64,000 bases of DNA, taken from contig CAVYRF010000002.1 of assembly GCA_963770895.1 (NCBI GenBank), forward strand, positions 2,624,001 to 2,688,000, read 5' to 3'. The notes under the pieces were generated by a model. The model made no database searches. It was not told the DNA's origin and saw only the letters and a program-made list of their open reading frames with translations. Source of the DNA: an uncultured Acidobacteriota bacterium (GTDB lineage: Bacteria; Acidobacteriota; Thermoanaerobaculia; Multivoradales; UBA5704). The translations under genes and the position numbers were made by a program. Positions 23,230 through 48,661 of the stretch are shown here, piece after piece; positions within the stretch are counted from its first letter, which is position 1; each line of letters opens with the position of its first letter.

Positions 23230-23736
23230 CTATTGAGCCGGCCGGACGGTGGCGCGCGGTACGACGGCGCCGGCGCCAAGGCGGGGGGGACTGGACGGGC
23301 TGGTGTGGCCGGCGGCGCCACCGGGACCGGCGCCGAGCGCGGCGGTGATGCCGTTTGCCGGTGCGTGGGCGGCTGCCAGCGAGGATTCTTCGCTGCGGGT
23401 CTGCACCCGCTTGAAGGCGATGAAGTCTTCCACCTCACGCTGGGCGTCGCGCGGCAGGGCATTGAAATCCTGCACCAGCTGGACGTCGCGCGGGGTGATC
23501 GATTCTTGCGCCACGCCTTCGAAGAACTCACCGATGCTCATCTTGAATTCGGTGAGGATGCGGAACAGGGTGTCCAGGCTGACCCGATACTCCCCTTGTT
23601 CCATGCGGGAGAGATCGGACTGCTGGATGCCCAGGCGGGCGGAGAGCTCCACCTGCGTCAGCTTGTGTTCCTTGCGCAACTGCCGGATCTTGCGTCCTAC
23701 CAGCTGCACCTGACGGATCTTTTCGATAGTTGCCAT
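23230..23736 (-). CDS. XRE-family HTH transcriptional regulator
   Basis: VGRKIRQLRKEHKLTQVELSARLGIQQSDLSRMEQG. Confidence 0.92.
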   Translation of the reverse strand: MATIEKIRQVQLVGRKIRQLRKEHKLTQVELSARLGIQQSDLSRMEQGEYRVSLDTLFRILTEFKMSIGEFFEGVAQESITPRDVQLVQDFNALPRDAQREVEDFIAFKRVQTRSEESSLAAAHAPANGITAALGAGPGGAAGHTSPSSPPRLGAGAVVPRATVRPAQ

Positions 23737-23817
23737 GGCCGTGTCTTTTCGAGAGCCTGGTCGAGTACTGGAACCGAGTCGCTATGTCGCGCTGGCATGA
23801 GCCAATGCTTTCTCAGG

Positions 23818-23846
23818 ATACTAATCCCCCCGCCCCCGACTGTCAA
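23818..23846 (-). promoter_or_regulatory. sigma70 promoter of XRE regulator
   Basis: TTGACA-N17-TAGTAT on the minus strand. Confidence 0.7.
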
Positions 23847-23942
23847 TCGCGTTGAACAGAGGGCGCACAGGGTGTTCCCTATATAGTGTCGGTCCGCCGC
23901 GGCATCGGGCCTGGCCGGCGCGACAGGAGGCTAGAACACACC

Positions 23943-24719
23943 TTGCGGCACCACCTTTTCCTGCTGCGGGAGCTGGTCAAGCGCGACTTTCAAGGGCGCT
24001 ACGCCGGGTCGCTCCTGGGCTTTGTCTGGTCGTTCGTACAGCCGCTGTGGCTGCTCCTGCTGTTCACCTTCGTGTTCTCCACCGTGCTCAAGGTGCGCGT
24101 CGTCGACCCGGCCAATCCGGGCGGCCACTTCGCGACTTTCCTGTTTGCCGGTCTGCTGCCATGGATCGCCCTGCAGGAAGGGGTCCTGCGCTCTTCGACC
24201 GCGATCACCGACAACGCGGTCCTGGTCAAGAAACTGCGCTTTCCGGCAGAGATCCTGGTGATGGCGGTGGTGCTGGCCGCCCTGCTCCACGAAGCCATCG
24301 CCGCCGTGGTCTTCCTGCTGGTCCTGGCGGTGCTCGGCGACCTGGCGTGGGGGGGGCTGCCGACGCTGCTCGTCGCGCTGCCGCTGCAGGCGCTCTTCAC
24401 CCTCGGCCTCGGACTGCTGCTGAGCGCCGTGCAGGTGTTCTTCCGCGACGTGGCGCAGATCCTGGGCATGTTGCTCACCGGATGGTTCTACCTGACGCCG
24501 ATCGTGTACTCGCTGGCGGCGGTGCCGGCGCGGCTGCGGCCGTGGATCGAGCTCAACCCGCTGACCCCCCTGGTGGAGCTCTACCGCCAGGCGTTCCTGC
24601 GCGGCAGCGTGACCCTGGTGCCGGGCACGGCGGGCCTGGCGGTTTCGGCCGTTGTGCTACTATCCGGCGGCTTTTGGCTGTTCCGGCGGCTCAAGATCGC
24701 CTTTGTCGATGAAATCTGA
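23943..24719 (+). CDS. wzm: ABC-2 polysaccharide exporter permease (Wzm/TagG)
   Basis: LVKRDFQGRYAGSLLGFVW..QP, LVKKLRFP, FFRDV, FYLTPIVY, LNPL; start 23886-23943. Confidence 0.93.
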   Translation: MRHHLFLLRELVKRDFQGRYAGSLLGFVWSFVQPLWLLLLFTFVFSTVLKVRVVDPANPGGHFATFLFAGLLPWIALQEGVLRSSTAITDNAVLVKKLRFPAEILVMAVVLAALLHEAIAAVVFLLVLAVLGDLAWGGLPTLLVALPLQALFTLGLGLLLSAVQVFFRDVAQILGMLLTGWFYLTPIVYSLAAVPARLRPWIELNPLTPLVELYRQAFLRGSVTLVPGTAGLAVSAVVLLSGGFWLFRRLKIAFVDEI

Positions 24720-24922
24720 CGGGCGCCACACAAGCCAACGAAGGAAAAAACGACGAGTTCCTCGGCTTCTCCCACCACCACCAGCCGCTCGGCCGGATGC
24801 GCCTCAGGCGACACCCGGCGCCGGCACCAAGCGCATCCTTCCATAGACGCTGTCAGGGGGACATACGTAAGGAAGAGGGCTCGCCACGCCGGACCCGCCA
24901 CGGAGGTGTCAATTTGTTCTCG

Positions 24923-26752: not shown

Positions 26753-26828
26753 ATGTCCTTCCGGCATTTCGCAGCCTCTGCGGCACCGCGTCGTGGCGGG
26801 CGCCCACAAAGAAAATCACTTCCGGGCC

Positions 26829-26857
26829 TTGACAGGCTGGGACGGCATCCCTATAGT
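26829..26857 (+). promoter_or_regulatory. Near-consensus sigma70 promoter of surface protein gene
   Basis: TTGACA-N17-TATAGT. Confidence 0.82.
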
Positions 26858-26863
26858 GCGAAA

Positions 26864-27113
26864 GCATAAAACCGGCTGACGAGGCTGGCGCCTCAAGCGA
26901 GACGCCGACTCCCGGTCGCGAAGAAGGCGCCGGATCGGCTGACGCAATCGCGACCAGGCGCCATAAATGTTGACTGTAGTTAGAGTTACATGGCTCTAAA
27001 CTTTAAACAGGAGGTGATGTTTCTTCCCGAGGAGAGTGGAGACGTCGGACGACTTGGATGGAAGTACTGCAACAGCGTCAGCAACACCTACCCTAGCTAG
27101 GAGATTGTCTGTC
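26864..27113 (+). promoter_or_regulatory. Long structured 5' leader
   Basis: Nested stems TGGCGCCT/AGGCGCCA and GGTCGCGA/TCGCGACC; hairpins TAGAG/CTCTA and AAACA/TGTTT. Confidence 0.5.
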
Positions 27114-28406: not shown

Positions 28407-28423
28407 ACACCCTTCGGTGGGTA

Positions 28424-28451
28424 CCGGCCTCTCCCGCAAGGGAGAGGCCGG
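28424..28451 (+). terminator. Perfect 12-bp hairpin with GCAA tetraloop after surface protein gene
   Basis: CCGGCCTCTCCC-GCAA-GGGAGAGGCCGG. Confidence 0.8.
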
Positions 28452-28748
28452 GCCCGCTGTCTCTCACGGGCCGATACCAAATCGGCTCTTGCAACCTGGT
28501 CCTCACCCCCCGGCCCCGGGAACCCATGGGTGGGTGCCAGATTGGAAGGGTCACCTCTCAGGCGGTCGAATGGCGGCAGGTTGTGCTGTGTTCGCGTCAG
28601 CCGTCTGGTGAGCAAGCGATTCGCAAGCTGTATTACTTGGTTCAGGCGTGCGCGCGGGCATGCTGGAAGCTGTCAACCGCGTTTCGCCGGCCGGTGGGTT
28701 CTCGCTGGGGTGCGAGCCACCGGATGGGGTCTTGATAGGAGCTGCGCC

Positions 28749-33575: not shown

Positions 33576-33639
33576 AACGCGGTTCTTCCTAGCGCCGAGG
33601 GGGCCGTTCCAAGGCCTTCCAAGCGTCCGTTTTCCTCTT

Positions 33640-33677
33640 GGCCGCCGGGCAGCAGACCGGCGGCCTCTTCTTTTTTG
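33640..33677 (+). terminator. Intrinsic terminator after PKD gene
   Basis: GGCCGCCGG-N8-CCGGCGGCC-TCTTCTTTTTT. Confidence 0.85.
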
Positions 33678-33699
33678 AACGCGGTAGAATCCCCGCCGG

Positions 33700-35400
33700 A
33701 TGCAAGAGCCCACCGTCGAAGTCGAGCGCCTGAGCAAGGTGTACCGGGTCTACCGGTCGCCGTGGGACCGCCTGCGCGAGGCGCTGCTGCGGCGCCCGCG
33801 GCATCGCGCCTTCAGCGCCCTGCAGGACGTCAATTTCAGCCTGCCGGAGGGTCAGGGGCTGGCAATCCTGGGCGAGAACGGCGCTGGGAAAAGCACGCTG
33901 CTCAAGATCCTGGCCGGCATCAGCACCCCCACTTCAGGACGCCTGAGCGTGCGCGGCAAGATCGCCTCCATCCTGGAGCTGGGCTCCGGTTTCCACCCTG
34001 AGTTCACCGGCCGCCAGAACATCGTCCTCAACGCCGCCATGCTGGGCCTTGGCGAGCGCGAGCTGCAGCAGAAGCTCCCCACCATCATCGAGTGGAGCGA
34101 GCTGGGCGACTTCATCGATCAGCCGGTCAAGGTGTACTCGACGGGCATGGCGATGCGGTTGGGGTTCTCGATCGCCACCCAGGTGGAACCGGACGTCCTG
34201 ATCATCGACGAGGCGCTGTCGGTGGGCGACGGCTACTTCCAAAAAAAGTGCATGGACCGCCTGCTGCAGTTCGTCGGCGGGGGCGGCACCCTGCTGTTCT
34301 GTTCGCACGCCATGTATTACGCCTCGGCGTTCTGCCAGCAGGCCCTGTGGCTGCGCAACGGGCGCGTCGAAGCCCTGGGACCGGTGGCGGACGTCGTCCG
34401 CGACTACGAAACCTTCCTGCTGCACAAGAGCGCTCGCGGCGCGGCCGCTGGCGATGCAGCGGGCGCTGGCAATGCCGCCGGCCGCGACCAGGGCCGCGCC
34501 GGTGCCGCGGCTGGCAAGCCAAGGGCCGGCGGAGCGGGCAAGGCGCCTGGTGAAGGGGACTCCGCGGCGGCCGGAGGTGGGGGAACGGAAGCCGGTGGAG
34601 AGGCGGAGGAACCGGCGCTGGAAGCGGTCCGGCGCCCGGCGCGTCTGCTGGGGGCGCGGGTCGTGGGCGGCGTGGCCGCCTCGGGCCAGGAGGCCGGTGA
34701 GGCCGCCGTGTCTGGCGGAGCTGGCCCGGCGCCAGCGGCAGGTGGTGCGGTCGCTGCGGCTGGTGGCGCCACCACCCCGTCTGGCGGTGTGGCCACGCTG
34801 GGCCAGGACCAGCACGCGGAACCGGGACTTGCGGCTGCGGGCGATGGGCCGCCGCGCTTCGCGCCTGGCGATCGCTGGGAGCTGGAGATCGAATGGGAGG
34901 CGAGCAGCCCCGACGTCGCGTTCCATGTCGGCGTCGGGATCAATCGCAGCGACGACCTGGAAGTCTTGACGCTGGCGACCCACCTGGACGGCAGGCCACC
35001 GATGTCCGGCAGCACCCACTACCAGGTCCGCGTCGTGATGCCGCGGCTACCGCTGGTCAAGGGGGAGTTCACGCTGTACCTGTTCCTGCTCGACGAATCG
35101 GGCCTGCACATCTACGACCAGCGCATCCACCGGCGCGCCTTCACCGTGCAGGCGCCCGGCTACGCCTTCGGGCTGATCACCGCCGATCACACCTGGGTCG
35201 AACCGGCGCCAGCGCCGGGCGTGGGCGCCGGCGTTGCTGCGACCGCCGCGCCGCCCCCGACAGCCCATGGATCGATGTCTGCCGCGGCCGCCGACGCCTC
35301 GGTAGCTGCCCCGGCCGCCGCGATCGTTGCAGTCCCCGCGGGTTCCGCGGCAGCGCGGGAAAACCCGGCTGCTCCGGCCTTGACCGGGCGGCGCAGCTAG
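33700..35400 (+). CDS. wzt: ABC polysaccharide exporter ATPase with Wzt-C domain
   Basis: GENGAGKSTLL, ELGSGFHPEFTGRQN, YSTGM..RLGF, IIDEALSVGD..FQKK; C-terminal beta-sandwich. Confidence 0.94.
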   Translation: MQEPTVEVERLSKVYRVYRSPWDRLREALLRRPRHRAFSALQDVNFSLPEGQGLAILGENGAGKSTLLKILAGISTPTSGRLSVRGKIASILELGSGFHPEFTGRQNIVLNAAMLGLGERELQQKLPTIIEWSELGDFIDQPVKVYSTGMAMRLGFSIATQVEPDVLIIDEALSVGDGYFQKKCMDRLLQFVGGGGTLLFCSHAMYYASAFCQQALWLRNGRVEALGPVADVVRDYETFLLHKSARGAAAGDAAGAGNAAGRDQGRAGAAAGKPRAGGAGKAPGEGDSAAAGGGGTEAGGEAEEPALEAVRRPARLLGARVVGGVAASGQEAGEAAVSGGAGPAPAAGGAVAAAGGATTPSGGVATLGQDQHAEPGLAAAGDGPPRFAPGDRWELEIEWEASSPDVAFHVGVGINRSDDLEVLTLATHLDGRPPMSGSTHYQVRVVMPRLPLVKGEFTLYLFLLDESGLHIYDQRIHRRAFTVQAPGYAFGLITADHTWVEPAPAPGVGAGVAATAAPPPTAHGSMSAAAADASVAAPAAAIVAVPAGSAAARENPAAPALTGRRS

Positions 35401-36545: not shown

Positions 36546-36752
36546 AGCGCGGCCTGCCGCTGGGCAACGGGGGTTGGGGAGGCAGACGCTCGTCCTGGCC
36601 GCGGGCGCCGTGGGCGCTGCGGGCCGGCGACGGGAACCTCACCTGCTGCGTAAGCAGTGCATTGCAGATGCGCCATCCGGTGCACCATCCACGACGACGC
36701 TCGGGCGCTGCCGGGGAAGGGCCGCCAGGAGCGGGGGGATAGAATCGCCACG

Positions 36753-37454
36753 ATGAGCGTCGAGCTGTCATTGGTCATCCCCGCCTACAACGAGGCGGCG
36801 CGGGTGGCGCCGGGGTTGCGGCGTGCGCAGGAATACCTGGCGGCGCGCGGTCTGACGTACGAAGTGCTGGTGGTGGACGACGGCAGCAGCGATGCCACCG
36901 CCGAGGTGGCGGCTGCGGCGGGGGCCAGGGTGCTGCGGCATGCCCGGAACCGCGGCAAGGGGGCGGCGGTCAAGACCGGCGTGCTGGCCAGCACCGGCGC
37001 CAGCGTGCTGATCTCGGACGCCGACTTTTCGACGCCGATCGAAGAGCTCGAAAAGCTGACCGGCCGCCTGGACGACGCCGATCTGGTACTGGGGAGCAGG
37101 GCGCTGGCCGGATCGCTGATCACCGTGCACCAGCCTTTCTATCGCGAGCTGATGGGCAAGACCTTCAACCGCGTGATTCGCGCCGTGGGTGTGCGCGGCA
37201 TCCGCGACACCCAGTGCGGCTTCAAGCTGGCACGCGGCGACGTGGCGCGCTCCCTGTGCTCGCAGCTGACCGTCGACGGGTTCGCCTACGACGTCGAGCT
37301 GATCTGGCTGGCGTTGCAACGAGGCTGCCGGGTGGTCGAAGTGGGGGTCGTCTGGGCCAACTCGCCCGATTCCCGCGTCGACCCCGTCCGCTCTTCGCTG
37401 AGCATGCTCCGGGACGTGCTGCAACTCCGCTGGCGCCACCGGGGCGGCCGTTGA
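36753..37454 (+). CDS. GT2 polyprenol-phosphate glycosyltransferase (Dpm1/Alg5-like)
   Basis: VIPAYNE, VDDGSSD, NRGKG, DADFS, DTQCGFK. Confidence 0.92.
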   Translation: MSVELSLVIPAYNEAARVAPGLRRAQEYLAARGLTYEVLVVDDGSSDATAEVAAAAGARVLRHARNRGKGAAVKTGVLASTGASVLISDADFSTPIEELEKLTGRLDDADLVLGSRALAGSLITVHQPFYRELMGKTFNRVIRAVGVRGIRDTQCGFKLARGDVARSLCSQLTVDGFAYDVELIWLALQRGCRVVEVGVVWANSPDSRVDPVRSSLSMLRDVLQLRWRHRGGR

Positions 37455-40201
37455 CGCTGGGGCTGGCGCTGAATCCGGCCCTGCCTCTGCTGGCCCTGGC
37501 CGCGGCGGCCGGCCCGGCCCTGGCCGCCGCCCTGGCGCGCGCCGGCCGCTGGCTGGACCGCGGCGGCGACCGCGCGCGGCGATCTCCGGGCGCGCCGGAG
37601 GCACCGGGGTCATCTCGTGCACCGGGGGCATCTGGTGCGCCGGGGGCATCTGGTGCGTCCGGCACGCAGGGCATGCACCGGCCGCGACCCCCTCAGAACA
37701 CCGCGCCGTTCCCCGGCGAGCCCCGGCGCCTGTGGCGCGAGCTTGGCACCCCCTGGGCGATCCTGGGCGTCGCCGGCCTGGCGCTGCTCGCGCCGGCCCT
37801 CGCCCTGCCCACCGGCATCCCCAGCCCGGCCGGCACCCTTTCGCTGCTGCCGCCCTGGTCCGGCGCGCCGGCGAGGCCGACCGGCGTCGCCGACACCGGG
37901 CGCCAGCCCGACCCAACCGCGGTGGCGACGCCCGCGGCGACGGCGCACGACATCGGGCGCCCGCCCGCCCCGGCCGCGGCGACGACGCCCGCGGCAACGG
38001 AGCGCGGTGCGGGCGGCTACCCCGGCAATCCGCTGCTGCGGGACGTGACCTACCAGATTCAGCCGTGGCTGCTGTTCATGCGGCGGGAGCTGCGGGCGGG
38101 GCGGTTGCCGGGCTGGAACCCGTTTCAGTTTGCCGGCGCGCCGTTCTGGGCCAACGGCCAATCGGCGGTGCTGTTTCCCCTCCACCTGCTGTTCGTGGCG
38201 CTGCCGCTGTCGCTCGGCTTCAACCTGCTGCCGTGGCTGCGCCTGGTGATCGGCGGCTGCGGGGTCTGGGCGCTGGGCCGCGAGCTGGGCCTGGGGATAC
38301 AGGCGGCGGCCCTTGCCGCGGTCAGCTTTGCGCTGTCCGGCATGCTGGTCAGCTTCGCGCTGTTCCCCATGGGCAACGCGCTGGCGCTGGTGCCCTGGGT
38401 GCTGTGGGCGGTGGAGCGCGTCGCCGCCACCGCCGGCGAGGCGCCTGCCGCCCGCCTGCGGGCTGTCCTGGCCCTGGCGGCCGCGACCGGCCTGCAGCTG
38501 CTGGCCGGCCATCCGGAAACCGCCGCCCATACGGCGCTGCTGTCGCTGCTGTACCTGGCGGTGCGCGGCGGCGCGCACCCCGTCGCCGCCTGGGCCGGTT
38601 GGTGTGGCGGCTGGCTGGCCGGCGCCGGTCTGGCGGCGGTGCAGCTGGTGCCGCTTGCCGCCCTGCTGCCCGCGACGACGCGCTGGCAGGCGGCCGGCGG
38701 CGGCACGGAGCCGCCTTTCGGTCTGCTCCTGCAACAGCCGTTGCGGCTGGTGCTGCCCGAACTCTTCGGCCATCCGGCGCACGGCACCTGGTGGGGGCCG
38801 TTCAACTACTCCGCCACCGCCGTCTACGCCGGCGCCCTGGCCCTGCCCCTTGCCGCCGCCGGCCTCGCCCGCTGCCGCCGCGACCGTCGCTGGCTGGCGC
38901 TCGCTGTTGCAGGCGCCTTCGCCTTTGCCGCCGCCTACCACTGGCCTGGGCTGCGCGATCTGCTGGCGGTTCTTCCGATCGTCGGCCGCGCCGCCCACCA
39001 CCGCCTGATCTTCGGCATCGAGCTGACCGTGGCGCTGCTCGCCGGCGCCGGCTGCGACGAATGGCTGGCCGGGCGCGGGCGCGGCATCCTCGCCGGCAGC
39101 GCCGCCGCCGTGGCGCTGCTGGCCGTAGCCTGGCTGCTGTACCGCGATGCCTGGGCCGCCCACGGTCTGACCGCGGTCGAGACGGCATGGACGCTGGGCG
39201 TGGCCGCCGCGGCAGTCCTCTGCGCCCTGTCGTTGCGTCTGACCGCGCCCTGGCGGCACCACCTGGCGGGGGCGCTGCCGGCGCTTGCGCTCTGCGACCT
39301 GCTGCTCGCCCACGGCGCCATCAACCCGCCCCTGCCGCTGGAGCGCCTCTACCCGCAAACCGGCGCCGTCGCCTTCCTCCAGCAGCAGTCTGGGGAGGGC
39401 AGCCAGGGCATCGGCCGCGGCAGCCAAGAATGGCGAGCCGGGCGGCACGGACGGGACGGCCAGGATAGGCCAGGAGGACCGGAGCCGGCCGCAAGGGTGG
39501 TCGGGATGGGCGAGGCGCTGCGGCCCGACACCGCCACGGTGTTCCGCCTCTACGACCTGCGCGGCGACGATCCGGTGAAGCTTGGGCGCTTCGAAGCTGT
39601 CTACGGGCAGCTCGCCCCCACCGACGCCGTCTACTTCCAGCCGGTCACCCATTGGGATTCGCCCTGGCTCGACCGCCTCGGCGTGCGCTGGGTACTCGCC
39701 GGCCCCGATCAGCCTCCCGCGATCGGCGCCGCGGGCGCCGCAGGCAGGTGGCGTCTGGCCTACGCCGGCGCCGATGCGCGGGTCTACGAGCGCCCGACGG
39801 CGCTGCCGCTGGTACGGTGGGATGCGGCGGGTGGCGGAGACCCGGATGCATTGGCGACGCTGGGACGTGCGCCGGGGCTGTGGCGGATTGCCTGGCGCAG
39901 CGCGATCCGGCGGACGCTGGTGGTGGCGGAGACGTGGGACCGCGGCTGGCGTGCGTACCTGGACGGCCGGCAGGTGCCGGTCCAGCCGGCAGGCGGCCTG
40001 CTGCTGGGGGTGGCCGTGGGTCCAGGCGTCGGCCGGCTGGAGCTGCGCTATCGGCCGCCGGGGCTGCGCGCCGGAGCGGCTCTGTCGCTCGCCACCGTGA
40101 TCCTGCTGGCAGGCCTCGCGGCCTGGCTGTCGCGGGTCGGGGATGGTCCCGCCGCGACGGGCGGCGGCGACAGTGCGACCTTGGAGGCGGGGGTCCGATG
40201 A
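37451..40201 (+). CDS. YfhO-family (GT-C-type) membrane glycosyltransferase
   Basis: NPLLRD..YQ..PW, GRLPGWNPFQFAGAPF, LAGHPE, many TMs, C-terminal ETWDRGWRAYLDG..LRYRP. Confidence 0.85.
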   Translation: MTLGLALNPALPLLALAAAAGPALAAALARAGRWLDRGGDRARRSPGAPEAPGSSRAPGASGAPGASGASGTQGMHRPRPPQNTAPFPGEPRRLWRELGTPWAILGVAGLALLAPALALPTGIPSPAGTLSLLPPWSGAPARPTGVADTGRQPDPTAVATPAATAHDIGRPPAPAAATTPAATERGAGGYPGNPLLRDVTYQIQPWLLFMRRELRAGRLPGWNPFQFAGAPFWANGQSAVLFPLHLLFVALPLSLGFNLLPWLRLVIGGCGVWALGRELGLGIQAAALAAVSFALSGMLVSFALFPMGNALALVPWVLWAVERVAATAGEAPAARLRAVLALAAATGLQLLAGHPETAAHTALLSLLYLAVRGGAHPVAAWAGWCGGWLAGAGLAAVQLVPLAALLPATTRWQAAGGGTEPPFGLLLQQPLRLVLPELFGHPAHGTWWGPFNYSATAVYAGALALPLAAAGLARCRRDRRWLALAVAGAFAFAAAYHWPGLRDLLAVLPIVGRAAHHRLIFGIELTVALLAGAGCDEWLAGRGRGILAGSAAAVALLAVAWLLYRDAWAAHGLTAVETAWTLGVAAAAVLCALSLRLTAPWRHHLAGALPALALCDLLLAHGAINPPLPLERLYPQTGAVAFLQQQSGEGSQGIGRGSQEWRAGRHGRDGQDRPGGPEPAARVVGMGEALRPDTATVFRLYDLRGDDPVKLGRFEAVYGQLAPTDAVYFQPVTHWDSPWLDRLGVRWVLAGPDQPPAIGAAGAAGRWRLAYAGADARVYERPTALPLVRWDAAGGGDPDALATLGRAPGLWRIAWRSAIRRTLVVAETWDRGWRAYLDGRQVPVQPAGGLLLGVAVGPGVGRLELRYRPPGLRAGAALSLATVILLAGLAAWLSRVGDGPAATGGGDSATLEAGVR

Positions 40202-41328
40202 TCGCGGTGCGGGCGACGACGGAGGCCGACGTGGAGGGGCTTTCGGCGCTGTTCGAGGCGCGGTTCGGGCATGGGTTGAGCCTGGCGGCGTGGAGCTGGA
40301 AGTACCGGCAGTTGCCGGGGGTGGCGCGCAGCATGGTGGCGGTGGACGCCGACGGCACCGTGTTGGCGCACGCTGGGGCGCTGCGTCTGGAGGCGCGGTG
40401 GCTTGGGGGCCAGGGGGGCATCTGGCAGCTGGTCGATTTTGCCGGGCGGTCGAGCGGCGCGGGCCTGCGGCCGCCGCTGGTCGAGCTGGGGAGGCAGCTG
40501 CTGGCCGACCTCCCCGCCGCGGGCGAGGCGCCCTGGATCTTCGGCTTCCCCAGCGAGCGTCACTTCCGCCTGGGGGAGCGGGTCTTCGGCTATCGGCCGC
40601 TGGTGCACCTGACCCCGCTGGCGGGGCCGCTGCCTCAGGTGCCGGCGGCTGCGGTGGTGGCGCCGGTGGCGCTGGCGGCGCTGGGGGAAACGGCCCTGGG
40701 GGAAACGGACCTGGAGAGAGCGGCGCCGGCTGACGAAGCGTCGCTGCGATGGCAGTCGGGCGACTGGCGCCTGGCGAGCGGCGATTCGTGCGGCGCATGG
40801 GCGGCGGCGATCTGGGAGCGCTGCGGGGTCCTGGGGATCCGGCGCACCAGGGAGTTCCTCAATTGGCGCTATTGGGCGCGGCCCGACCGGTATTACCGCT
40901 TCTACCGCCTGCGCAACGGGTCTGACCAGGGCCTGGCGGTGTTTGCCTTTGTCGGCGACCAGGCCTGGGCGGCGGAGCTCTGGCTTCCGGGCGGGAGCGA
41001 CTGGTACTCTCCGATGCTTGCCGTCGCCGCCGATCTGCGGGCCGCCGGCCTGCGCAGCTGGCGCTTCTGGCCCCTGCCGCAGCCGGGCGGCGCACACGAC
41101 GCGGCGGCAGCCGCGGGCGCGGTGACCGGCGATGCCGCCATCGCCGCCATCGCCGCCAGCGGCGGCGCAGGTGGGGCAGGCACGGACGCCGGGCTGCTGC
41201 GCCGTCTGGGCCTGCTCCCTGAAAGCGAGCGGCGGTTCGTCGGCTGCCGCGGCGCCGTGGGCGCGGCGGACCCGGCGCCGGCGGCGAGCGGCTTCTACTT
41301 CGCCATGGGTGACTATGACCTCGCCTGA
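40198..41328 (+). CDS. GNAT-family acyltransferase (glycan-locus type)
   Basis: MIAVRATT.AD, W.WKY, FGFPS, FLNWRY..P; ATG overlapping upstream stop. Confidence 0.72.
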   Translation: MIAVRATTEADVEGLSALFEARFGHGLSLAAWSWKYRQLPGVARSMVAVDADGTVLAHAGALRLEARWLGGQGGIWQLVDFAGRSSGAGLRPPLVELGRQLLADLPAAGEAPWIFGFPSERHFRLGERVFGYRPLVHLTPLAGPLPQVPAAAVVAPVALAALGETALGETDLERAAPADEASLRWQSGDWRLASGDSCGAWAAAIWERCGVLGIRRTREFLNWRYWARPDRYYRFYRLRNGSDQGLAVFAFVGDQAWAAELWLPGGSDWYSPMLAVAADLRAAGLRSWRFWPLPQPGGAHDAAAAAGAVTGDAAIAAIAASGGAGGAGTDAGLLRRLGLLPESERRFVGCRGAVGAADPAPAASGFYFAMGDYDLA

Positions 41329-43933
41329 CCTCGGCCATCGCGCGGGCGCTCCCGCGTCCGTCGCCGTGCCGGCGCGTCTGCTCGGCGCGGCGCTCTGCCT
41401 TGTCCTGGCGGCGGGGTGCCGGCATGCGCCTGCTGGCTTCGATCTGCGGTCGCTGGTCGCGGCGGGGCGGTTTACCGTCGCCGGCGGCACCGCGGCCAAC
41501 GGCACGCCGGCAAACGGCTCGGCTGCCAACGCCACAGCCGCCGGGGGCACGGCGCCGGAAGAAACGGCGCCAAACGGCGCCTCGCCGAGCCTGGTGTTCG
41601 CGGCTCGCCCGCAGCTCGCGGACGTCGAGGTGGACCACGAGCGGCGGCCGGTGGTCCTCACCAGCGCCGCGCCCTGGAGCTGGACCGGTCAGGTGCCGCC
41701 GCACGCGGAGCTGCACGCGGGCGTGCAGCTGGTGCCGGCGGCGCGGCCGCTGGTGCGCCGCCTGCAGGCGGTGGTGACCCTGCGGAGCGGGCACGAGACG
41801 GAGGTTTTGCAGGCGGCGCGGTCGGGAGAGCGGGTCGATCCGCTGTGGCTCGACCTGTCGGCCGACCTGGAGCGCTATGCGGGCCGCCGGGTGACGCTGC
41901 AGTTCGCGGTGACCCTTGCCGACCTGCCGCGGGCCTCCGCCGGCGCCAACCTGGTGGCCTGGGGGCCGGTGGCCCTCACCGCCGCCGCCACGGGTCCGGG
42001 CTCGATCGCGCCCACGTCCGCCACGTCTGCCGCTGGCGGCGCCGCCGGCAGAGCCGGAACCGCCGGCGCCGGCCCGGCAGGCGGCACGGCGCGGCCCAAC
42101 ATCCTGATGATCCTGGTGGACACGCTGCGCCGCGACCGCCTGACGCCTTACGGCTACGGCAAGGACACCACGCCCGAAATGGCGCGCTGGCTGGCCGAGC
42201 GCGGCACCGTGGCCGAGGATGCCTACAGCCAGGCGCCCTGGACGCTGCCGTCGGTGGTGTCGCTGTTCACCGGCCGGTATCCGGGGGAGCTGCTGGGCTC
42301 CGACCTCGCTTCGTACGGCGTGCCGCCGCGGCTCCAGCCGCTGGCCGAGCGGCTGGCGGCGGCCGGGTTCGTGACCGCGGGATTTCTTGCCAATCCGACC
42401 CTGCACGTCGGCGCCGGCTTCGAGCGCGGCTTTCAGACGTTCTATGCCCCGCCGGCCGACGTGGAGTGGCTGCGGCGCCACGCCGAGGACGTCAATCGCC
42501 ATGCCCTGCCTTGGATTGCCGCGCACCAGGACGGCGGGCGGCCGTTCTTCCTGTACCTGCACTACATCGATCCCCACGATCCCTACGACAATCCGGACGT
42601 CGTCGGCAACCATTCGCCGTTCGATGACGGCAACTACACCGGCCCGGTGGCGGGCGACTGGGTGCACGGCGTCTACAGCGGCAAGATCGTCCTGCCCGAT
42701 CCGCCGCGCGACATCGCCCACCTCTCCGCCCTGTACGACGCCGAGGTGCACTACGTCGACCGCTACGTCGGCCAGGTGCTGGCCAGCCTGCGGCCGGCGG
42801 TGCTGGCCAACACCCTGGTGGTGCTCACCGCCGATCACGGCGAGGAGCTGTTCGACCACGGCGGCTGGAAGCATGGGCAGACGCTCTATGACGAGCAGAT
42901 CCACGTGCCGCTGCTCTGGCGGTGGGACGGCCACATCGCGGCCGGCCGGCGGCTGGCGGGCACCGTGCGGCTGCTCGACGTGGCGCCCACCCTGGCCGCC
43001 GCCGCCGGCGCGCCGCCGGATCCGGGTTGGGAAGGCGCCAACCTGCTGCCGGCACTGACCGGCGCCGCACCGCTCGCCGAGCGGCCGGCTTTCTCCCAGG
43101 GCCTGTCCGGCGGACCCCTGCGCGCCGCCGCGGTGCTCGGCCATGAAAAGCTGATCGTGTTCAACCACGAAGAGCCCTTCCAACCCGGCGACGCGCTGCA
43201 GGACCACCTGTGGCGCCAGGACCTTGCCCGCCTGCGGCGGGTCGAGCACTACGACCTGGCCGCGGACCCGCGCGAGCGCCACGACCTGGCGGCCGCCTCG
43301 ACCCCGAACCCCGGCGCCGGTCCGGCCACCGGCCCGGCCGGTAGCCCAGCCGCGGCGCCGGCCGGCAGCCGCCTGCCGCTGCTCGCCGCGGTCATCGAGC
43401 GCCGCCTGGACCGCTGCCTGTCCGGTCTGCGCCTGTACGCCGCCGGCATTCCGGCCGGGTCGACGCTCCGCCTCGACCTCACCCTGGCGCGGCCGCCGCA
43501 CGGCTGGACCCCCTACCTGCTGGGCGCCGCCGACCACGCCGTCGTGGCGGGAGGGCACCTGGTCCTGGACCTTGCGGGCGGCGACTGGCTGGTGCGCGGG
43601 GTGCGGATCGACGACGATGCGGCGGGGGTGGTGGCGCTTGCCGCCACCCTGGACGGCCGGCCGCTGCCGCCGGGGCAGGTGCGCGTCGGCGCCGGCGCGC
43701 CCTATGCCGGCGGTGCGCTGAACCCGGCCGCGCTGCGGACCCGCGACTGGCCGGCGGTGCTCGACGACGCCACGGCGGCGCCCTTCGGCGGCGCCGGCGC
43801 CGCCGGCGCCGCCGGTAAAATCGGCCCCGTCGTGGGGCTGTGGCTGCACGACACCACGGGCGAGCTGCAGCGGCCGACCGCCCACGACCCCGAAACCGAA
43901 CGGCGCCTGCGCGCCCTGGGGTACATCGAATGA
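41315..43933 (+). CDS. Sulfatase/alkaline-phosphatase-superfamily lipoprotein, Thr-type active site
   Basis: Lipobox LAAGC; PNILMILVDTLRRD; WTLPSVVSLFTG; DPHDPY; ADHGE; HVPL; C-terminal LRALGY. Confidence 0.88.
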   Translation: MTSPDLGHRAGAPASVAVPARLLGAALCLVLAAGCRHAPAGFDLRSLVAAGRFTVAGGTAANGTPANGSAANATAAGGTAPEETAPNGASPSLVFAARPQLADVEVDHERRPVVLTSAAPWSWTGQVPPHAELHAGVQLVPAARPLVRRLQAVVTLRSGHETEVLQAARSGERVDPLWLDLSADLERYAGRRVTLQFAVTLADLPRASAGANLVAWGPVALTAAATGPGSIAPTSATSAAGGAAGRAGTAGAGPAGGTARPNILMILVDTLRRDRLTPYGYGKDTTPEMARWLAERGTVAEDAYSQAPWTLPSVVSLFTGRYPGELLGSDLASYGVPPRLQPLAERLAAAGFVTAGFLANPTLHVGAGFERGFQTFYAPPADVEWLRRHAEDVNRHALPWIAAHQDGGRPFFLYLHYIDPHDPYDNPDVVGNHSPFDDGNYTGPVAGDWVHGVYSGKIVLPDPPRDIAHLSALYDAEVHYVDRYVGQVLASLRPAVLANTLVVLTADHGEELFDHGGWKHGQTLYDEQIHVPLLWRWDGHIAAGRRLAGTVRLLDVAPTLAAAAGAPPDPGWEGANLLPALTGAAPLAERPAFSQGLSGGPLRAAAVLGHEKLIVFNHEEPFQPGDALQDHLWRQDLARLRRVEHYDLAADPRERHDLAAASTPNPGAGPATGPAGSPAAAPAGSRLPLLAAVIERRLDRCLSGLRLYAAGIPAGSTLRLDLTLARPPHGWTPYLLGAADHAVVAGGHLVLDLAGGDWLVRGVRIDDDAAGVVALAATLDGRPLPPGQVRVGAGAPYAGGALNPAALRTRDWPAVLDDATAAPFGGAGAAGAAGKIGPVVGLWLHDTTGELQRPTAHDPETERRLRALGYIE

Positions 43934-45897
43934 GCACACCGCCTCCGCCGCAGCCTCCCGGCGCCACCGAAGAGGTGCGCGCCGCAAGCGTCCTGGTCGT
44001 GGCACCCCATCAGGACGACGAGGTGGTGGGGTGCGGCGGCCTGGTGGCCGCGCTGGCCGCGGCGGGCGCCGTGGTGCGGGTGCTGTTTCTGAGCGACGGC
44101 GGCGGCGGCACCGAGCGCGTCCCCGACCGCGAAACCTACCGCTTGCGCCGCCGCCACGAAGCGGTGGCGGCCCTGGGCCTGCTGGGAGTGGCCGGCAGCG
44201 ACCGTCTGGAGCTGCCCGACGGCGCGCTCGACCAGCACCTGGAGGCGGCGGCAGCCGGCATCCGCCGCGCGCTGACCAGCCAGCGCCCCGAGCTGCTGCT
44301 GTGCCCGTCGCCGCTGGAGGTCTCCGCCGACCACCGCGCCGCGTTCGCCGCCCTCCACCGGGTGCTGGCGCCGCTACGCTCCGCCGCCGAGGTGGAGGAG
44401 CTTGGCGGCCTGCGCATCCTGCTCTACGAGGTCAACCACCCCGCCTACCCCGACCTGCTGGTGGACGTGAGCGGCGCCGAGCCGCTGCTGCGCGCGGCCA
44501 TGGCCTGCTATGTCAGCCAGGAGGAGCGCCACCCCTACCTGGCGGCGGCGCTCGGCCTGCGCCGCTATCGCACCCTCAGCCTGTCGCCGCAGGTGACCAT
44601 GGCGGAGGCCTACCGGCGGCTGACCGTCGCCGATTTCACCACCCGCAGCGCGGCCCAGCTGGTGCGCCACCTGGGCGGCGAGCCGGAGCTGCTCGCCGTG
44701 CACGAGGGGCCGCGGATCTCCGTCGTGGTGCGCACCCGCGACCGCCCCCAGCTGCTGGCCGAAGCCCTGGGCAGCCTGGCGGGCGGCACCTATCGGCGGG
44801 CCAGCGTCGTGCTGGTCAACGACGGCGGGCAGCCGCCGGTGGTGCCGGACGGCTTCCCGCTGCCGGTCACCCGCGTCGAGCTGCCGCCGGGTGGCGGGGA
44901 GCATGGCCGCGCCGCGGCGGCGGCGGCCGGCATCGCCGCCGCCACCGGCGACTACGTGGCGTTCCTCGACGACGACGACCTGGCGGCGCCCGAGCACCTG
45001 GCGACCCTGGCCGCCATGGTCGGCGGCGCCGCGGTGCGCATCGCCTACACCGACGCCGCGGTCGGCGTGTACGAGCTGGACGGCCAATCGGGCTGGGTCT
45101 GCCGCGAGCGCCGGCTGCCGTACAGCCGCGACTTCGATCCCGACCTGCTGCTGGTGGACAACTACATCCCGTTCAACACCCTGCTGATCGAGCGCCGGCT
45201 GCTGCAGGAGGCGGGACCGCCCGACGCCGCGCTGCCGTTTTTCGAGGATTGGGACCTGCTCATCCGCCTGGCGGCGCTGGCGCCCTTCCACCACCTGGCG
45301 CGGGTCACCTGCGAATACCGCCACTTCCGCGGTCCGATGTCGCACGTCTTCGGCGAGCGCCCGCGCGAGCGCGCCGACTTCCTCGCCGTCAAGGCGCAGG
45401 TGCTGGCCAAGCACGCCGCGCGCCTCCCCCCGGCGGCGCTGGCGCGGGTGGTGGACACCTTGCGTGGCGACCTGGTCGCGGCGCGCGAGGCGGTCGCGGT
45501 GGGCGAGCGCCAGCTCGCGGCAGCGCGCGACGAAATGGCCGGCCTGGCGCGCGCCCACCGTGCCGTGGCGGCGGAACGCTTTCATTTCGAGGACCGCTAT
45601 CACGCCGTCAACGGCGAGCTGCATGCGGTGCGCGGGGATCTGCACGCGGCGCACGGCGAGGTGACGCGCCTGGCCCGCGAGCTGGCGGACCACGCCGCCG
45701 CCGCCGCCGCCAACGCCGCCGAGCTGCGGCGCCTGTACGACGAAGAGTGCCGCCTGCGCGCCGCCGTCGACGAGCAGACGGCGCACCTGGGCCGCACCTA
45801 CGGCGAGATCGACCGCCTCACCCGGCAGATCCGCGCCATGGAGGCGACGCGCGCCTGGCGCCTGCGCCGGTGGCTCGAGGGGTGGCGCCGCCGATGA
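43930..45897 (+). CDS. PIG-L/LmbE deacetylase - GT2 - coiled-coil fusion
   Basis: APHQDDE, R..EA, ADH; then VVVRTRDRP, VNDGG, FLDDDD, EDWD; heptad tail ending MEATRAWRLRRW. Confidence 0.88.
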   Translation: MSTPPPPQPPGATEEVRAASVLVVAPHQDDEVVGCGGLVAALAAAGAVVRVLFLSDGGGGTERVPDRETYRLRRRHEAVAALGLLGVAGSDRLELPDGALDQHLEAAAAGIRRALTSQRPELLLCPSPLEVSADHRAAFAALHRVLAPLRSAAEVEELGGLRILLYEVNHPAYPDLLVDVSGAEPLLRAAMACYVSQEERHPYLAAALGLRRYRTLSLSPQVTMAEAYRRLTVADFTTRSAAQLVRHLGGEPELLAVHEGPRISVVVRTRDRPQLLAEALGSLAGGTYRRASVVLVNDGGQPPVVPDGFPLPVTRVELPPGGGEHGRAAAAAAGIAAATGDYVAFLDDDDLAAPEHLATLAAMVGGAAVRIAYTDAAVGVYELDGQSGWVCRERRLPYSRDFDPDLLLVDNYIPFNTLLIERRLLQEAGPPDAALPFFEDWDLLIRLAALAPFHHLARVTCEYRHFRGPMSHVFGERPRERADFLAVKAQVLAKHAARLPPAALARVVDTLRGDLVAAREAVAVGERQLAAARDEMAGLARAHRAVAAERFHFEDRYHAVNGELHAVRGDLHAAHGEVTRLARELADHAAAAAANAAELRRLYDEECRLRAAVDEQTAHLGRTYGEIDRLTRQIRAMEATRAWRLRRWLEGWRRR

Positions 45898-47222
45898 GCC
45901 GCATCGCCTTCGTCTCGAGCGAGCCGATCCGGCCGCGCATGGCGGGCATCGGCATCCGCTATCTGGAATTCGCCCGCCGCCTGGCGGCGCGCGGCCTGGC
46001 GACCGTCCTGCTGTCGCCGGCAACCGCCGCGGAGAGCGAGGGGCTGGACCTGGCAGGCGTCGAGCTGCAACGCTGGGAGCCGCAGCGCCTGGCCGGCCAG
46101 CTGGCCGGCTGCACCGCCGCGGTGGCCCAGGGGCAGCTGGCCAACGACCTGGTGTTGGCGGCGCCCGACCTGCCGGTGGCGCTGGACCTGTACGACCCCT
46201 GGCTGGTCGAGCATTTTTCCTACCTTGGCACCCTGGGCCTGGATCCCTACCGCAACGACCACGCCACCTGGCTGCTGCAGCTGTCGCGCGGCGATTTCTT
46301 CCTCTGTTCGTCGGAAGAGCAGCGCGCCTTCTACCTGGGCTTCCTGGCTGCCCTCGGCCGCGTCAACCCCGAGCTGGCGGCGCGCGATCCCGACCTGCGC
46401 ACGCTGATCGAGGTGGTGCCTTTCGGCGTGCCGGACGCGCTGCCGCCGCACCGCCCGTACCTGCCGCCGCGCCAGCCCGGCGAGACGCGGCTGCTGTTCG
46501 GCGGCCTGTACGACTGGTACGACCCCTGGACCCTTCTCGACGCCCTGGCGCTGGCCGAGCGGCCGGGCCAGGTGCTGCTGTTGATCCACAATCCCAACCC
46601 GGGCACGCCGCAGCGCCTGTTCGAAGAGGTCGCCGAGCGCTGCCGCCGCCTGGGCTGGTGGGGGAGCCGCGTGCAGGCGATCGACTGGGTGCCGGTCGAG
46701 CGGCGCTACGACCTGCTGCGCGACGTCGACCTGCTGGTGGCGCCGCACCGCCCCAGCCTGGAAACCCGGCTGTCGCTGCGCACCCGCTTCCTGGACGCGC
46801 TGGCCGCCGGCTGTCCGGTGGTGACGACGGAAGGCGGCGCCATGAGCCGCATGCTGCGCGAGCACGGCGCCGGCTGGGCCGTGCCGCCGGGCGACGCGGC
46901 GGCGCTCGCCCAGGCGCTGGCCGCCGCGCTGGCCGCCGGGCCCGGATCGGTCGCCGGCGCCGCCTGGCGCCAGGGCGCCGCGGCGCTTCTGGCTGCCTTT
47001 CGCTGGGACCAGGCGCTGGACCCGCTGGCGCGCTTCTGCGGCGCCCCCTGGCGCGACGCCACCAAGTCCCGCTTCGTGCACACCCTGGCGACCGCGGCGC
47101 CCGCCGACTCCCTGGCCTTCCGCATCCGCCGCCGTCTGCGCCTGGCGCGGGCGCGCCTCGCGCAGCGCAGCGGCGGGGCCGGCAGCGGCAGCGGGCGCGC
47201 AGGCGAGGCGCCGCAGCGATGA
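45894..47222 (+). CDS. GT4-like (GT-B) glycosyltransferase
   Basis: MAGIGIRY, VVPFG, FGGLYDWYDP, ETRLSLRTRFLDALAAGCPVV. Confidence 0.82.
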   Translation: MSRIAFVSSEPIRPRMAGIGIRYLEFARRLAARGLATVLLSPATAAESEGLDLAGVELQRWEPQRLAGQLAGCTAAVAQGQLANDLVLAAPDLPVALDLYDPWLVEHFSYLGTLGLDPYRNDHATWLLQLSRGDFFLCSSEEQRAFYLGFLAALGRVNPELAARDPDLRTLIEVVPFGVPDALPPHRPYLPPRQPGETRLLFGGLYDWYDPWTLLDALALAERPGQVLLLIHNPNPGTPQRLFEEVAERCRRLGWWGSRVQAIDWVPVERRYDLLRDVDLLVAPHRPSLETRLSLRTRFLDALAAGCPVVTTEGGAMSRMLREHGAGWAVPPGDAAALAQALAAALAAGPGSVAGAAWRQGAAALLAAFRWDQALDPLARFCGAPWRDATKSRFVHTLATAAPADSLAFRIRRRLRLARARLAQRSGGAGSGSGRAGEAPQR

Positions 47223-48661
47223 CGGCGCCGCGCCTGGTTTCGGTCGCCATCCTGTCGTGGAACGGCCGCCGCCACCTGGAAGTCTGCCTGCAGGCGCTCG
47301 CCGAGCAGCAGGACCCCGGCGTCCCCTGGGAGATCCTGGTCCTCGACAACGGCTCGACCGACGGCACCGCCGCCTGGTTGGCCCGGCAGCGCCACCCGCG
47401 CGTGCGGCTGATCGAAAGCGCGGTCAACCTGGGCTTCTGCGCCGGCAACAACCGCCTGGTCGCCGACGCCGCCGGCGACGCGGTGGCCTTCCTGAACAAC
47501 GACACCAGGCCCCGCCCCGACTGGCTGGCGGCGCTGGTCGACGCCTACGGCGCGGCGCCTGCCGACGTCGCCGCGGTGTCGGGCAAGATCGTCGATTGGG
47601 CGGGCGAGCGGCTGGACTTCGGGCGCGGCGTCATGGCCTTCGACGGCCACGCCTTCCAGCTGGACTTCCGCCGCCCCCTGGCCGCCGCCCGCATCCCCGC
47701 CGCGGGCGAAGAGCTGCTCTTTGCCTGCGGCGGCAACATGCTCGTCCGGCGCGCCTCGTTCCTGGCCGCCGGCGGCTTCGATGCCAGCTACTTTGCCTAC
47801 CTGGAAGACGTCGACCTGGGCTGGCGCCTGTGGTCGGGAGGCGAGCGCGTGACCTTCGTGCCCGACGCCGTCGTCCACCACCGGTCCAGCGCCACCTCGG
47901 ACCTGCTGGGCCTCTACAACCGCGGCTTCCTGTTCGAGCGCAACGCCTTCCTGACCGCCTACAAGAACTACGAGCCGGGCCTGTGGGAGCGCGTCATGCC
48001 GGCGCTGCTGCTGACCTTCCTGTCGCGCACCCATACCATGCTCGCCGACAACAACCCCGGCGGCGGCTCCCTGCGCATCGACCCCTACGCCGGCTGGATC
48101 GCCAACACCGCCGCCGCGCCAGCCCCGCCGCCCGCGGCGCTAGATTCCGCCGCCGCGTCGCCGTCCGACGAGCACCCGGCCGCCGCACCCAGCCTGACAG
48201 CCGCGCCCGCCGCCGCCCGCCCGCCCGTCCTCAAGCGCCTGGTCCGCACCTGGCGCCAGCACGGCGCCCGCGAAGTCTGGCGCCGCGCCGGCCGCCGCCT
48301 GGCCGCCCTCCCCGCGGCGCGCGGCGGGGCAGCGGCCGGTGCGGTTGCGGACGCCGCCGCCAGCGTGCCGGTGCTCACCGACGAGCGCAGCGTCGCCCAG
48401 CTGCGCGCCCTGTCCTACCTGCTGTCGCACCTGGAACCCGCCGCCGCCGCCCGCCGGCAGGTACAAGCCCGCCGCCGCCGCCCCGACAGCGAGATCTTCG
48501 CCCGCTTCCCCCTCTACCTGGTCCCCACCTACCCCGGCGACCACGCCCTCTTCGCCAGCCCCGCCTTTGCCGCCTGGTTTCCCGCCGACCTGCCCATCGC
48601 CCGCCACACCCTGGCCGAAATCATGGAACCCGACTCCCCGCCCGCCAACCCCTCAACCTGA
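47219..48661 (+). CDS. GT2 glycosyltransferase
   Basis: ILSWNG, LDNGSTD, NLGFCAGNN, FLNND, GGFD..YFAYLEDVDLGWR. Confidence 0.92.
   Translation: MTAPRLVSVAILSWNGRRHLEVCLQALAEQQDPGVPWEILVLDNGSTDGTAAWLARQRHPRVRLIESAVNLGFCAGNNRLVADAAGDAVAFLNNDTRPRPDWLAALVDAYGAAPADVAAVSGKIVDWAGERLDFGRGVMAFDGHAFQLDFRRPLAAARIPAAGEELLFACGGNMLVRRASFLAAGGFDASYFAYLEDVDLGWRLWSGGERVTFVPDAVVHHRSSATSDLLGLYNRGFLFERNAFLTAYKNYEPGLWERVMPALLLTFLSRTHTMLADNNPGGGSLRIDPYAGWIANTAAAPAPPPAALDSAAASPSDEHPAAAPSLTAAPAAARPPVLKRLVRTWRQHGAREVWRRAGRRLAALPAARGGAAAGAVADAAASVPVLTDERSVAQLRALSYLLSHLEPAAAARRQVQARRRRPDSEIFARFPLYLVPTYPGDHALFASPAFAAWFPADLPIARHTLAEIMEPDSPPANPST

Follow-up and report, generated by a model that had tools for sequence, protein, structure and literature searches.

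In a 64,000-nucleotide stretch of DNA from an uncultured Acidobacteriota bacterium (the whole of this stretch is called the window below), the two genes of an ATP-binding cassette (ABC) glycan exporter, wzm and wzt, are held apart by three genes for secreted proteins. Together with a divergent regulator gene on the left and a run of glycan assembly and decoration genes after wzt, they form a 25-kb unit (positions 23230 to 48661), which appears from the comparison of loci to be an envelope unit conserved across the class Thermoanaerobaculia. The three inserted genes encode, in order, an FG-GAP propeller (P0002), an acidic protein (P0001) and a giant protein with PKD stretches and a DUF5719 C-terminus (P0003). 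We propose, with a probability of roughly 0.4, that the secreted proteins dock non-covalently on the ABC-exported glycan, which would couple the glycan to predicted glycan-binding proteins.

The exporter genes are split by genes for secreted proteins

Genes in the window, whose G+C content is about 72%, were called from the frame of third-position GC and from start-codon context, and were named by Pfam and NCBIfam. The wzm gene (23943..24719, plus strand) encodes an ABC-2 type permease of a glycan exporter (Pfam ABC2_membrane, PF01061, 76.7 bits against a cut-off of 26.9). It starts at a TTG codon preceded by AGGAGG, and its product has several hydrophobic segments; the NCBIfam matches to Wzm/RfbD and KpsM were both under their cut-offs. 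The ATPase gene wzt (33700..35400, plus strand) encodes a nucleotide-binding domain of the Wzt/TagH type (Pfam ABC_tran, PF00005, 79.2 bits), for which the best NCBIfam models, both under their equivalog cut-offs, were TagH (221 bits) and Wzt (191 bits). The C-terminal Wzt_C-like domain was matched weakly, at 27.1 bits against a cut-off of 30.4 in the window scan and at 30.4 bits, just at the cut-off, in the genome search. The host Wzt has 566 aa, compared with mostly 401-444 aa for the ORFs (open reading frames) of relatives at the same position. Its residues 245-366 (window 34432-34797) are an Ala/Gly-rich low-complexity insert and tail, over which third-position GC drops out of frame.

Genes for Wzm/Wzt exporters are usually adjacent in one operon. 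Here they are separated by 9 kb with the three secreted-protein genes in between, as an earlier interpretation made from the letters of this DNA (the sequence-only reading) had stated. The same reading had placed an XRE regulator at the left edge, and this was confirmed: an XRE-family helix-turn-helix (HTH) gene (23230..23736, minus strand; Pfam HTH_3, E 1.9e-12) is divergent from wzm. Nearly all relatives have a match to it (54-90% identity by tblastn) upstream of wzm and on the opposite strand. In some relatives the XRE gene is followed by a gene for a TPR protein (L041:7513-8421, L002:18449-19405) and then by one for an unknown protein of about 455 aa with a signal-peptide-like N-terminus (L041:6140-7510); the window has neither.

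The split layout is kept in relatives

The clusters of relatives were compared by placing the window proteins with tblastn on 20 loci fetched around FG-GAP matches and on 24 loci from named metagenome-assembled genomes (MAGs), and selected extra ORFs were scanned with Pfam. The FG-GAP orthologue served as the anchor, and the duplicates L024, L029 and L034 were removed from the synteny counts. The wzm gene was directly upstream of the FG-GAP gene in 37 of the 40 loci with enough upstream DNA, and wzt was downstream of it in 28 of the 30 loci with at least 9.5 kb of downstream sequence. Between the FG-GAP gene and the wzt flank, at least one P0001-type gene was present in 29/30 loci and the C-domain of the giant in 24/30. 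The split layout from wzm to wzt was found in 26 of the 30 loci with both flanks. By tblastn, no wzm was seen upstream in L017 and L018, and no wzt in the stretch available for L019 and L037.

The insert that stays constant is the FG-GAP gene, whereas P0001 and PKD genes vary, with 0-3 copies of each. The smallest locus, L041, has wzm, FG-GAP and wzt alone, with 19 nt separating the FG-GAP and wzt matches, and L042 has the order wzm-FG-GAP-P0001-wzt. The gene order persists as protein identity falls to 31-40%, and across two orders: L048, from another order of the class, keeps XRE / wzm-FG-GAP-P0001-...-wzt-GT2 at 24-59% identity. In L046, from a genome of another class, the FG-GAP gene was found with three tandem P0001 genes, and the 20 kb fetched contained no match to wzm or wzt. 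The loss of synteny in relatives that the sequence-only reading had named as a reason to abandon it was not observed, the secreted genes being deeply syntenic with both wzm and wzt.

P0001 and the giant form a predicted expression cassette

The P0001 and PKD genes appear to make up a self-contained unit, with a strong promoter and a terminator of its own, located between wzm-FG-GAP and the wzt operon. They are read as one transcription unit of their own because a conserved promoter, leader and terminator enclose the pair. The near-consensus promoter that had been noticed before the acidic protein gene is a sigma-70-type site, TTGACA-17-TATAGT (26829..26857, plus strand), with 11 of 12 consensus matches. 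Promoter-like sites were found twice in 13 kb, against 0.8 expected. The exact hexamers with a 17-18 nt spacer recur in 30 of the 38 non-duplicate loci, whose genomes have 58-73% G+C. The leader of P0001 is about 250 nt long here and 230-300 nt across loci. It contains a Shine-Dalgarno-like element, AGGAGGTGAT (27009..27018, plus strand), about 95 nt before the start codon. This 10-mer occurs once in the window (expected 0.05), and GGAGGTGAT is invariant in all 23 aligned leaders. The element resembles the Shine-Dalgarno-like sequences that stabilise the mRNA of Bacillus genes with very high expression. An Rfam search of 23000-36000 gave a single sub-threshold row and no match in the leader. 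An intrinsic terminator with nine G-C pairs followed by a T run (33640..33675, plus strand) lies between the PKD gene and wzt, and 16 of 24 non-duplicate loci have a similar hairpin with a T run, 52-69 nt past the PKD stop.

The P0001 leader and gene were also covered by contigs from four soil metatranscriptome runs of four studies (pieces within 26866-27640), some of which differ from the window at just 1-2 positions. Contig cover was slight or absent in most bins outside 26648-28639, which says nothing on the expression of the neighbours. Such contigs cannot rank genes by expression, as transcripts of relatives add up in them, and they give a weak hint that P0001 is expressed. The unit has three transcription blocks in fixed order, namely XRE / wzm-FG-GAP, the P0001-PKD cassette, and wzt with the glycosyltransferase and decoration genes; wzt would be transcribed either by read-through or from a promoter not seen.

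A cassette of this kind could be a neighbour without shared function, inserted early in the class and kept by inertia or by shared XRE regulation. Its transcriptional self-containment fits such an origin, as do the P0001 paralogues, which work from unrelated genome sites, and the locus L011, where wzm has been relocated beside wzt and the secreted genes are still found by the upstream M23 and GHMP genes. On the other hand, the order is kept at low protein identity and over two orders, and the content of the insert changes in copy number but its flanks never drift apart. Moreover, P0001 was not found at E<=1e-10 in any of the three tested genomes with only weak FG-GAP matches (G031, G231 and G028), a phyletic hint for shared function. 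Because of the conservation over two orders, and because P0001 was not found where FG-GAP is weak, mere co-location appears less likely, and we consider it improbable.

Folds of the secreted proteins

P0001 (27114..28406, plus strand) is an acidic secreted protein of 430 aa with a signal peptide, a pI of 4.25 and six Cys. Its AlphaFold2 (AF2) model is confident (pLDDT 91.8, pTM 0.91) and shows two beta-sandwich halves. The N-domain (residues 22-237) matched TM1070 (1nc7_A) with Z 10.5, rmsd 2.6 and 111 of 116 residues aligned, and the sensory rhodopsin transducer of Anabaena (ASRT; 2ii7_A) with Z 6.6, the next row being at Z 4.8. The modelled N-domain has, by these matches, the fold of the ASRT/ASRAH beta-sandwich superfamily. 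According to De Souza, Iyer and Aravind (PMC2739507), the ASRT superfamily is predicted to be sugar-binding, and extracellular actinobacterial ASRT-like members are proposed to bind the polysaccharide made by a linked glycosyltransferase. A relation of P0001 to viral double-jelly-roll capsid or tail-fibre proteins was also considered and dropped, the Foldseek rows in PDB and BFVD having a TM of about 0.15 and a probability of up to 0.25-0.4.

The P0001 family is very large and has no Pfam model. At E<=0.001 it took in 5673 of 8000 scored candidates and at least 1884 clusters at 50% identity, 832 of them at E<=1e-30; the 120 matches listed for P0001 are 69-98% identical. The host genome has nine P0001-type copies. 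Elsewhere the domain is fused to PKD, Big_5, Big_9, DUF11, Calx-beta, P_proprotein and Peptidase_S74.

The giant P0003 (28749..33575, plus strand; 1608 aa) has five PKD stretches (Pfam PKD_4, 165.8 bits). Its last 478 residues (1131-1608) match DUF5719 (PF18986) in three stretches with 28.8 bits against a gathering score of 26.2 (E 8.7e-7). For its N-terminal propeller-like region, an Atlas search gave a lead, and only a lead, to LVIVD (residues 40-490, score 0.86). One Atlas cluster bears DUF5719 (39%) together with ASRT (13%). DUF5719 probably covers the actinobacterial ASRAH lipoproteins. The literature search, which left subscription journals outside, found no paper on DUF5719. A PDB sequence search with the C-domain of P0003 gave no match, and no known S-layer domain was present in the window proteins scanned by Pfam. 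Homology of P0001 with the C-terminal repeats of P0003 was rejected, as neither BLASTP nor hhalign was significant. In L011 (genome G032), a single ORF of 1945 aa (L011:6432-12269) takes in two P0001-type domains as well as the giant's propeller-like N-region.

P0002 (24923..26752, plus strand) has a signal peptide and a Pfam FG-GAP_3 match of 131 bits. In its AF2 model (pLDDT 81.6), a seven-blade propeller is combined with a small beta domain and with a disordered linker rich in Ala and Pro. Foldseek matched the model to ITFG2, CRTAC1 and integrin alpha heads, to two proteins of lectin type (the PVL lectin, and UmbA4 with teichuronic acid bound) and to enzymes of the same fold such as aldos-2-ulose dehydratase. 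The gene is single-copy in the host genome. Strong matches (E<=1e-69) came from 36 of 40 relatives belonging to 12 families within the order. A phylum-wide search with the N-domain gave matches in 6 of 301 genomes, a figure that understates the range because this search missed the divergent L048 module, later shown by tblastn. Taken together, the models and the Pfam matches suggest that all three secreted proteins have folds with glycan-binding precedents (ASRT/TM1070-like, DUF5719 and lectin-like FG-GAP).

The position of the propeller gene raises the alternative that P0002, and perhaps the other two proteins, serve export or processing and are not cargo or coat; they might then form a periplasmic or outer-membrane hand-over device in place of the missing OPX/PCP proteins, or act as a lyase or in chain trimming. 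The FG-GAP gene is the one gene always beside wzm, and the minimal order in L041 consists of it and the two pump genes. No Wza or PCP gene is in the cluster, the single Poly_export (Wza-type) gene of the host genome lying about 390 kb away, and certain proteins of the fold are enzymes, as noted above. However, P0001 and the giant have their own promoter and terminator and vary in copy number, which fits cargo better than machinery, and no catalytic motif was identified. An accessory role is, in our estimate, also improbable.

Glycan assembly and decoration genes after wzt

Eight genes follow wzt up to position 48661, all on the plus strand, and stop and start codons overlap at 7/8 junctions from wzt through the last GT2 gene, so the overlapping glycan operon described by the sequence-only reading stands. 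The first gene encodes a GT2 glycosyltransferase (35400..36545; Pfam Glycos_transf_2), which is matched in relatives. It is followed by a small GT2, a candidate polyprenol-phosphate-sugar synthase (36753..37454; Pfam GT2, 87.9 bits), without a hydrophobic segment; its best NCBIfam models, PpgS (82.8 bits against a cut-off of 370), AglJ (62.3 against 325) and an ArnC-like one, were all far below their cut-offs. The next product, a putative GT-C membrane glycosyltransferase with about eight hydrophobic segments (37451..40201), had been labelled YfhO/GT-C. The Pfam YfhO match (PF09586, 51.5 bits) is above the cut-off, but it spans profile positions 786-835 of 835 only, that is, the last 50 residues.

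The cytoplasmic protein g10 (40198..41328), labelled GNAT by the sequence-only reading, is possibly GNAT-like. Homologues of g10 in two relatives matched Acetyltransf_9 weakly (E 4.6e-6), but g10 itself had no Pfam, NCBIfam or PDB sequence match. The following gene (41315..43933) encodes an alkaline-phosphatase-superfamily ('sulfatase') lipoprotein (Pfam Sulfatase, 146.5 bits). The Thr-type assignment made earlier agrees with the orthologue matches, as Thr is kept at the nucleophile position in every one of them (9 rows). The protein is nevertheless not of the LtaS/EptA type, because it has a lipoprotein-type signal (LAAGC, read by eye), which closes its single hydrophobic segment (residues 13-36), and no N-terminal membrane domain. 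The last three genes encode a PIG-L deacetylase-GT2 fusion (43930..45897; Pfam matches to GT2 and, with 80.9 bits, to PIG-L) whose C-terminal tail, some 130 residues long, is helical and resembles a coiled coil by eye, a GT4 glycosyltransferase (45894..47222; Pfam Glyco_trans_1_4), and the final GT2 glycosyltransferase (47219..48661; Pfam GT2, 78.8 bits). The order PPGT-YfhO-g10-Sulf-PIGL/GT2-GT4-GT2, or the portion of it inside the fetched stretch, was kept in all five relatives that were followed downstream.

Some relatives have further genes near wzt. A radical-SAM/SPASM gene (about 374 aa) is in the wzt operon of L004, L007-L010, L012, L013 and L016 (for example L007:15669-16808), directly after wzt in most of them; the window lacks such a gene. 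It is an unlikely maturase of the sulfatase-fold protein, given the Thr nucleophile in all orthologue matches, which is present even in a genome having the radical-SAM gene. An ASST (arylsulfotransferase) family gene lies between the PKD gene and wzt in L005 (11414-12814), L006 (7437-8537), L010 (11751-13202) and L013 (11433-12800).

Other neighbours were surveyed among the Pfam-scanned ORFs between 11885 and 63122. No Wzx, Wzy, Wza or lipid A genes were recognised among them, in agreement with the sequence-only reading. The scanned ORFs flanking the cluster on both sides are housekeeping genes, apart from a DUF5615/PIN-like gene (48705-49097, minus strand) directly after the last GT2 gene, which is probably a toxin-antitoxin element and probably marks the end of the unit. 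An aconitase ORF (window 52436-56065; 1209 aa) has its Aconitase domain starting only at residue 362; its true start is probably much further in, or else it has an N-terminal extension. Upstream of the cluster, at a distance of 5 kb, a Zincin_1 gene (PF06262; window 18001-18360) is beside an ECF sigma factor gene. An inactive zincin is also part of the ASRAH neighbourhood of actinobacteria as described in PMC2739507, and this likeness may be a coincidence.

The host genome and the route of attachment

The host genome (8.16 Mb in three contigs, 95% complete) is predicted to be that of a diderm acidobacterium, because LpxC is present, the LCP family has no match in it, and the 24 named loci that the search with the FG-GAP protein gave all come from Thermoanaerobaculia or Acidobacteriota. 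Every one of the named relatives found is a MAG. The sequence-only reading had called the host a probable diderm acidobacterium, and the genome search points the same way. A teichoic-acid-like wall polymer in a monoderm host, which the TagH and YfhO matches and the G+C content of 72% had suggested, was rejected on the same three grounds. The host genome also has at least eight YfhO-like genes over the cut-off. A second locus (C2:5036284-5043063) has Wzm-like, GT2 and polyprenol-phosphate-type GT2 matches within about 7 kb, and C2:1538166-1539473, near a YfhO-like gene, encodes another Wzt, whose Wzt_C domain is strong (93.6 bits).

According to the sequence-only reading, the exported glycan is attached covalently to the secreted proteins. 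In this case lipid-linked glycan or single polyprenol-phosphate sugars would be transferred onto P0001, the giant and/or the FG-GAP protein to give a glycosylated S-layer. The same deep synteny is consistent with such transfer, and the layout recalls the slg clusters of Bacillaceae. The small GT2 and the YfhO-like GT-C resemble Streptococcus Pgf genes at the family level, with scores far below the cut-offs (PgfS 38.7 and PgfM2 34 bits). Acceptor residues would be at hand in the giant, which is 22.7% Ser+Thr, and in a Pro/Thr-rich low-confidence loop of P0001 near residues 330-350. However, a profile search of the genome found no Wzy_C-type transferase gene, as slg clusters have, in the window and four elsewhere, and STT3 had no match in the 95% complete genome, on which ground N-glycosylation via a PglB-type enzyme was rejected as well. 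The GT-C had no tblastn match in the stretch examined of the L009, L013, L019, L041 and L042 clusters, whose layout is otherwise kept, and the family consensus does not retain the Thr-rich loop of P0001. The claim of covalent attachment was not supported by these results, and we regard it as unlikely. Docking is preferred because the predicted folds are of the sugar-binding type, Wzy_C and STT3 are missing from the cluster, and the GT-C is unmatched in some relatives. Sugar-binding folds, as modelled here, fit non-covalent docking at least as well as covalent attachment.

A possible protein-on-glycan coat

For non-covalent docking, the following course of events may be proposed. On the inner face of the membrane, the GT2 and GT4 enzymes would assemble a polymer linked to a polyprenol carrier, and Wzm/Wzt would move it to the periplasmic face, the Wzt_C-like domain recognising a terminal cap. 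Outside the cytoplasm the polymer might be decorated by the small GT2 with the GT-C and by the Thr-type phosphatase-fold lipoprotein, and it could reach the surface on a lipid anchor, for example lipid A-core, via a Wzy_C protein encoded elsewhere. P0001 and the giant would be produced in quantity from their own strong promoter and would dock through their ASRT-like and DUF5719 beta-sandwiches, giving a protein-on-glycan coat. Either at the surface or in the periplasm, the FG-GAP propeller may bind this polymer too.

Several results weigh against this proposal. P0001, whether whole or as residues 23-239, matched no Pfam family even at E<=10, ASRT (PF07100) included. Its C-terminal half matches structures at Z of about 4 only, Foldseek of the P0001 model against PDB and BFVD gave nothing clear, and the comparison of the P0001-family profile with that of the P0003 C-domain was not significant (probability 0.5%, E 0.12). 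A shared fold by itself shows no function, so that sugar binding here is a prediction from models. The other eight P0001 copies of the host sit among unrelated housekeeping genes, far from the wzm- and wzt-like genes that the genome searches found; therefore the family needs no local glycan cluster. The synteny counts, such as the 26 of 30 loci with the split layout, overstate independence, because the loci were picked via the FG-GAP gene and the genomes are kin. Finally, the metatranscriptome contigs give no ranking that could show P0001 to be abundant.

A bolder version, in which P0001 and the PKD/DUF5719 giant form a novel surface layer on a dedicated ABC-exported glycan and the FG-GAP protein is a new periplasmic pump partner that passes the polymer outward without OPX/PCP or Lpt-ligase routes, seems to us highly doubtful. 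The competing readings are not mutually exclusive.

Thermoanaerobaculia are common in soils, and the literature search found no publication on their cell surface. The unit described here names the likely main surface components, that is, the P0001 family, a matched glycan pathway, and a regulator, promoter and leader that are conserved. It provides a testable case in which a diderm that is not one of the Proteobacteria may couple surface protein to glycan, and it raises the puzzle of why a secreted propeller gene persists between two ABC pump genes.

Comparison with known systems

The absence of a characterised system of this kind in acidobacteria, which the sequence-only reading had assumed, agrees with the literature search: no paper was found on such a glycan-protein system in Acidobacteria or on Wzt combined with FG-GAP, and no relevant one on S-layers or glycosylation in Thermoanaerobaculia or Acidobacteria; two entries found for Wzm and Wzt in Acidobacteria looked irrelevant.

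Related arrangements are known from other bacteria. In the slg clusters of Geobacillus and Paenibacillus, wzm, wzt and glycosyltransferase genes lie beside surface-protein genes, as here, and the Wzt has an extra C-terminal domain, as the present one probably does. Those hosts are monoderm, however, and their wzm and wzt are adjacent, whereas the present host is a predicted diderm with the pump genes split. A Wzy_C-type O-oligosaccharyltransferase is also encoded in the slg clusters, along with nucleotide-sugar genes, and the present cluster has no such transferase gene. The ABC-dependent O-antigen pathways of E. coli O9a and Klebsiella have a carbohydrate-binding Wzt and coiled-coil chain terminators. 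They share with the unit the Wzm permease, GT2/GT4 polymerases and one glycosyltransferase that ends in a helical tail, and probably also a Wzt_C-like domain on the Wzt and periplasmic side-branching by a polyprenol-phosphate glycosyltransferase with a GT-C. In contrast to them, wzm and wzt are here split by secreted-protein genes, and Wzt_C is matched only at the cut-off.

Caulobacter RsaA is likewise an abundant acidic surface protein of a diderm host, held non-covalently by a glycan with nearby genes. But RsaA is an RTX protein that is exported by a type I system, anchored on the lipopolysaccharide (LPS) O-antigen and forms an S-layer, whereas P0001 has a Sec signal and an unrelated fold. 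The actinobacterial ASRAH lipoproteins are also extracellular ASRT-like beta-sandwiches, encoded next to enzymes of glycan synthesis and proposed to bind the polymer that these make; in PMC2739507 they are linked to one glycosyltransferase, WhiB and an inactive zincin. They belong to another phylum and envelope and have one neighbouring glycosyltransferase, whereas P0001 is associated with a Wzm/Wzt system and eight enzymes. P0001 differs from ASRAH/ASRT proteins in having no sequence match to PF07100.

Loci that pair genes for surface proteins with glycan genes are already known, namely the slg, RsaA/O-antigen and ASRAH-glycosyltransferase loci. New are the self-contained cassette and the propeller gene nested between wzm and wzt and kept across a class of diderm Acidobacteriota, and the protein families involved are uncharacterised. 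This layout suggests a kind of cell coat not described before, in which protein and sugar parts would be matched to each other.

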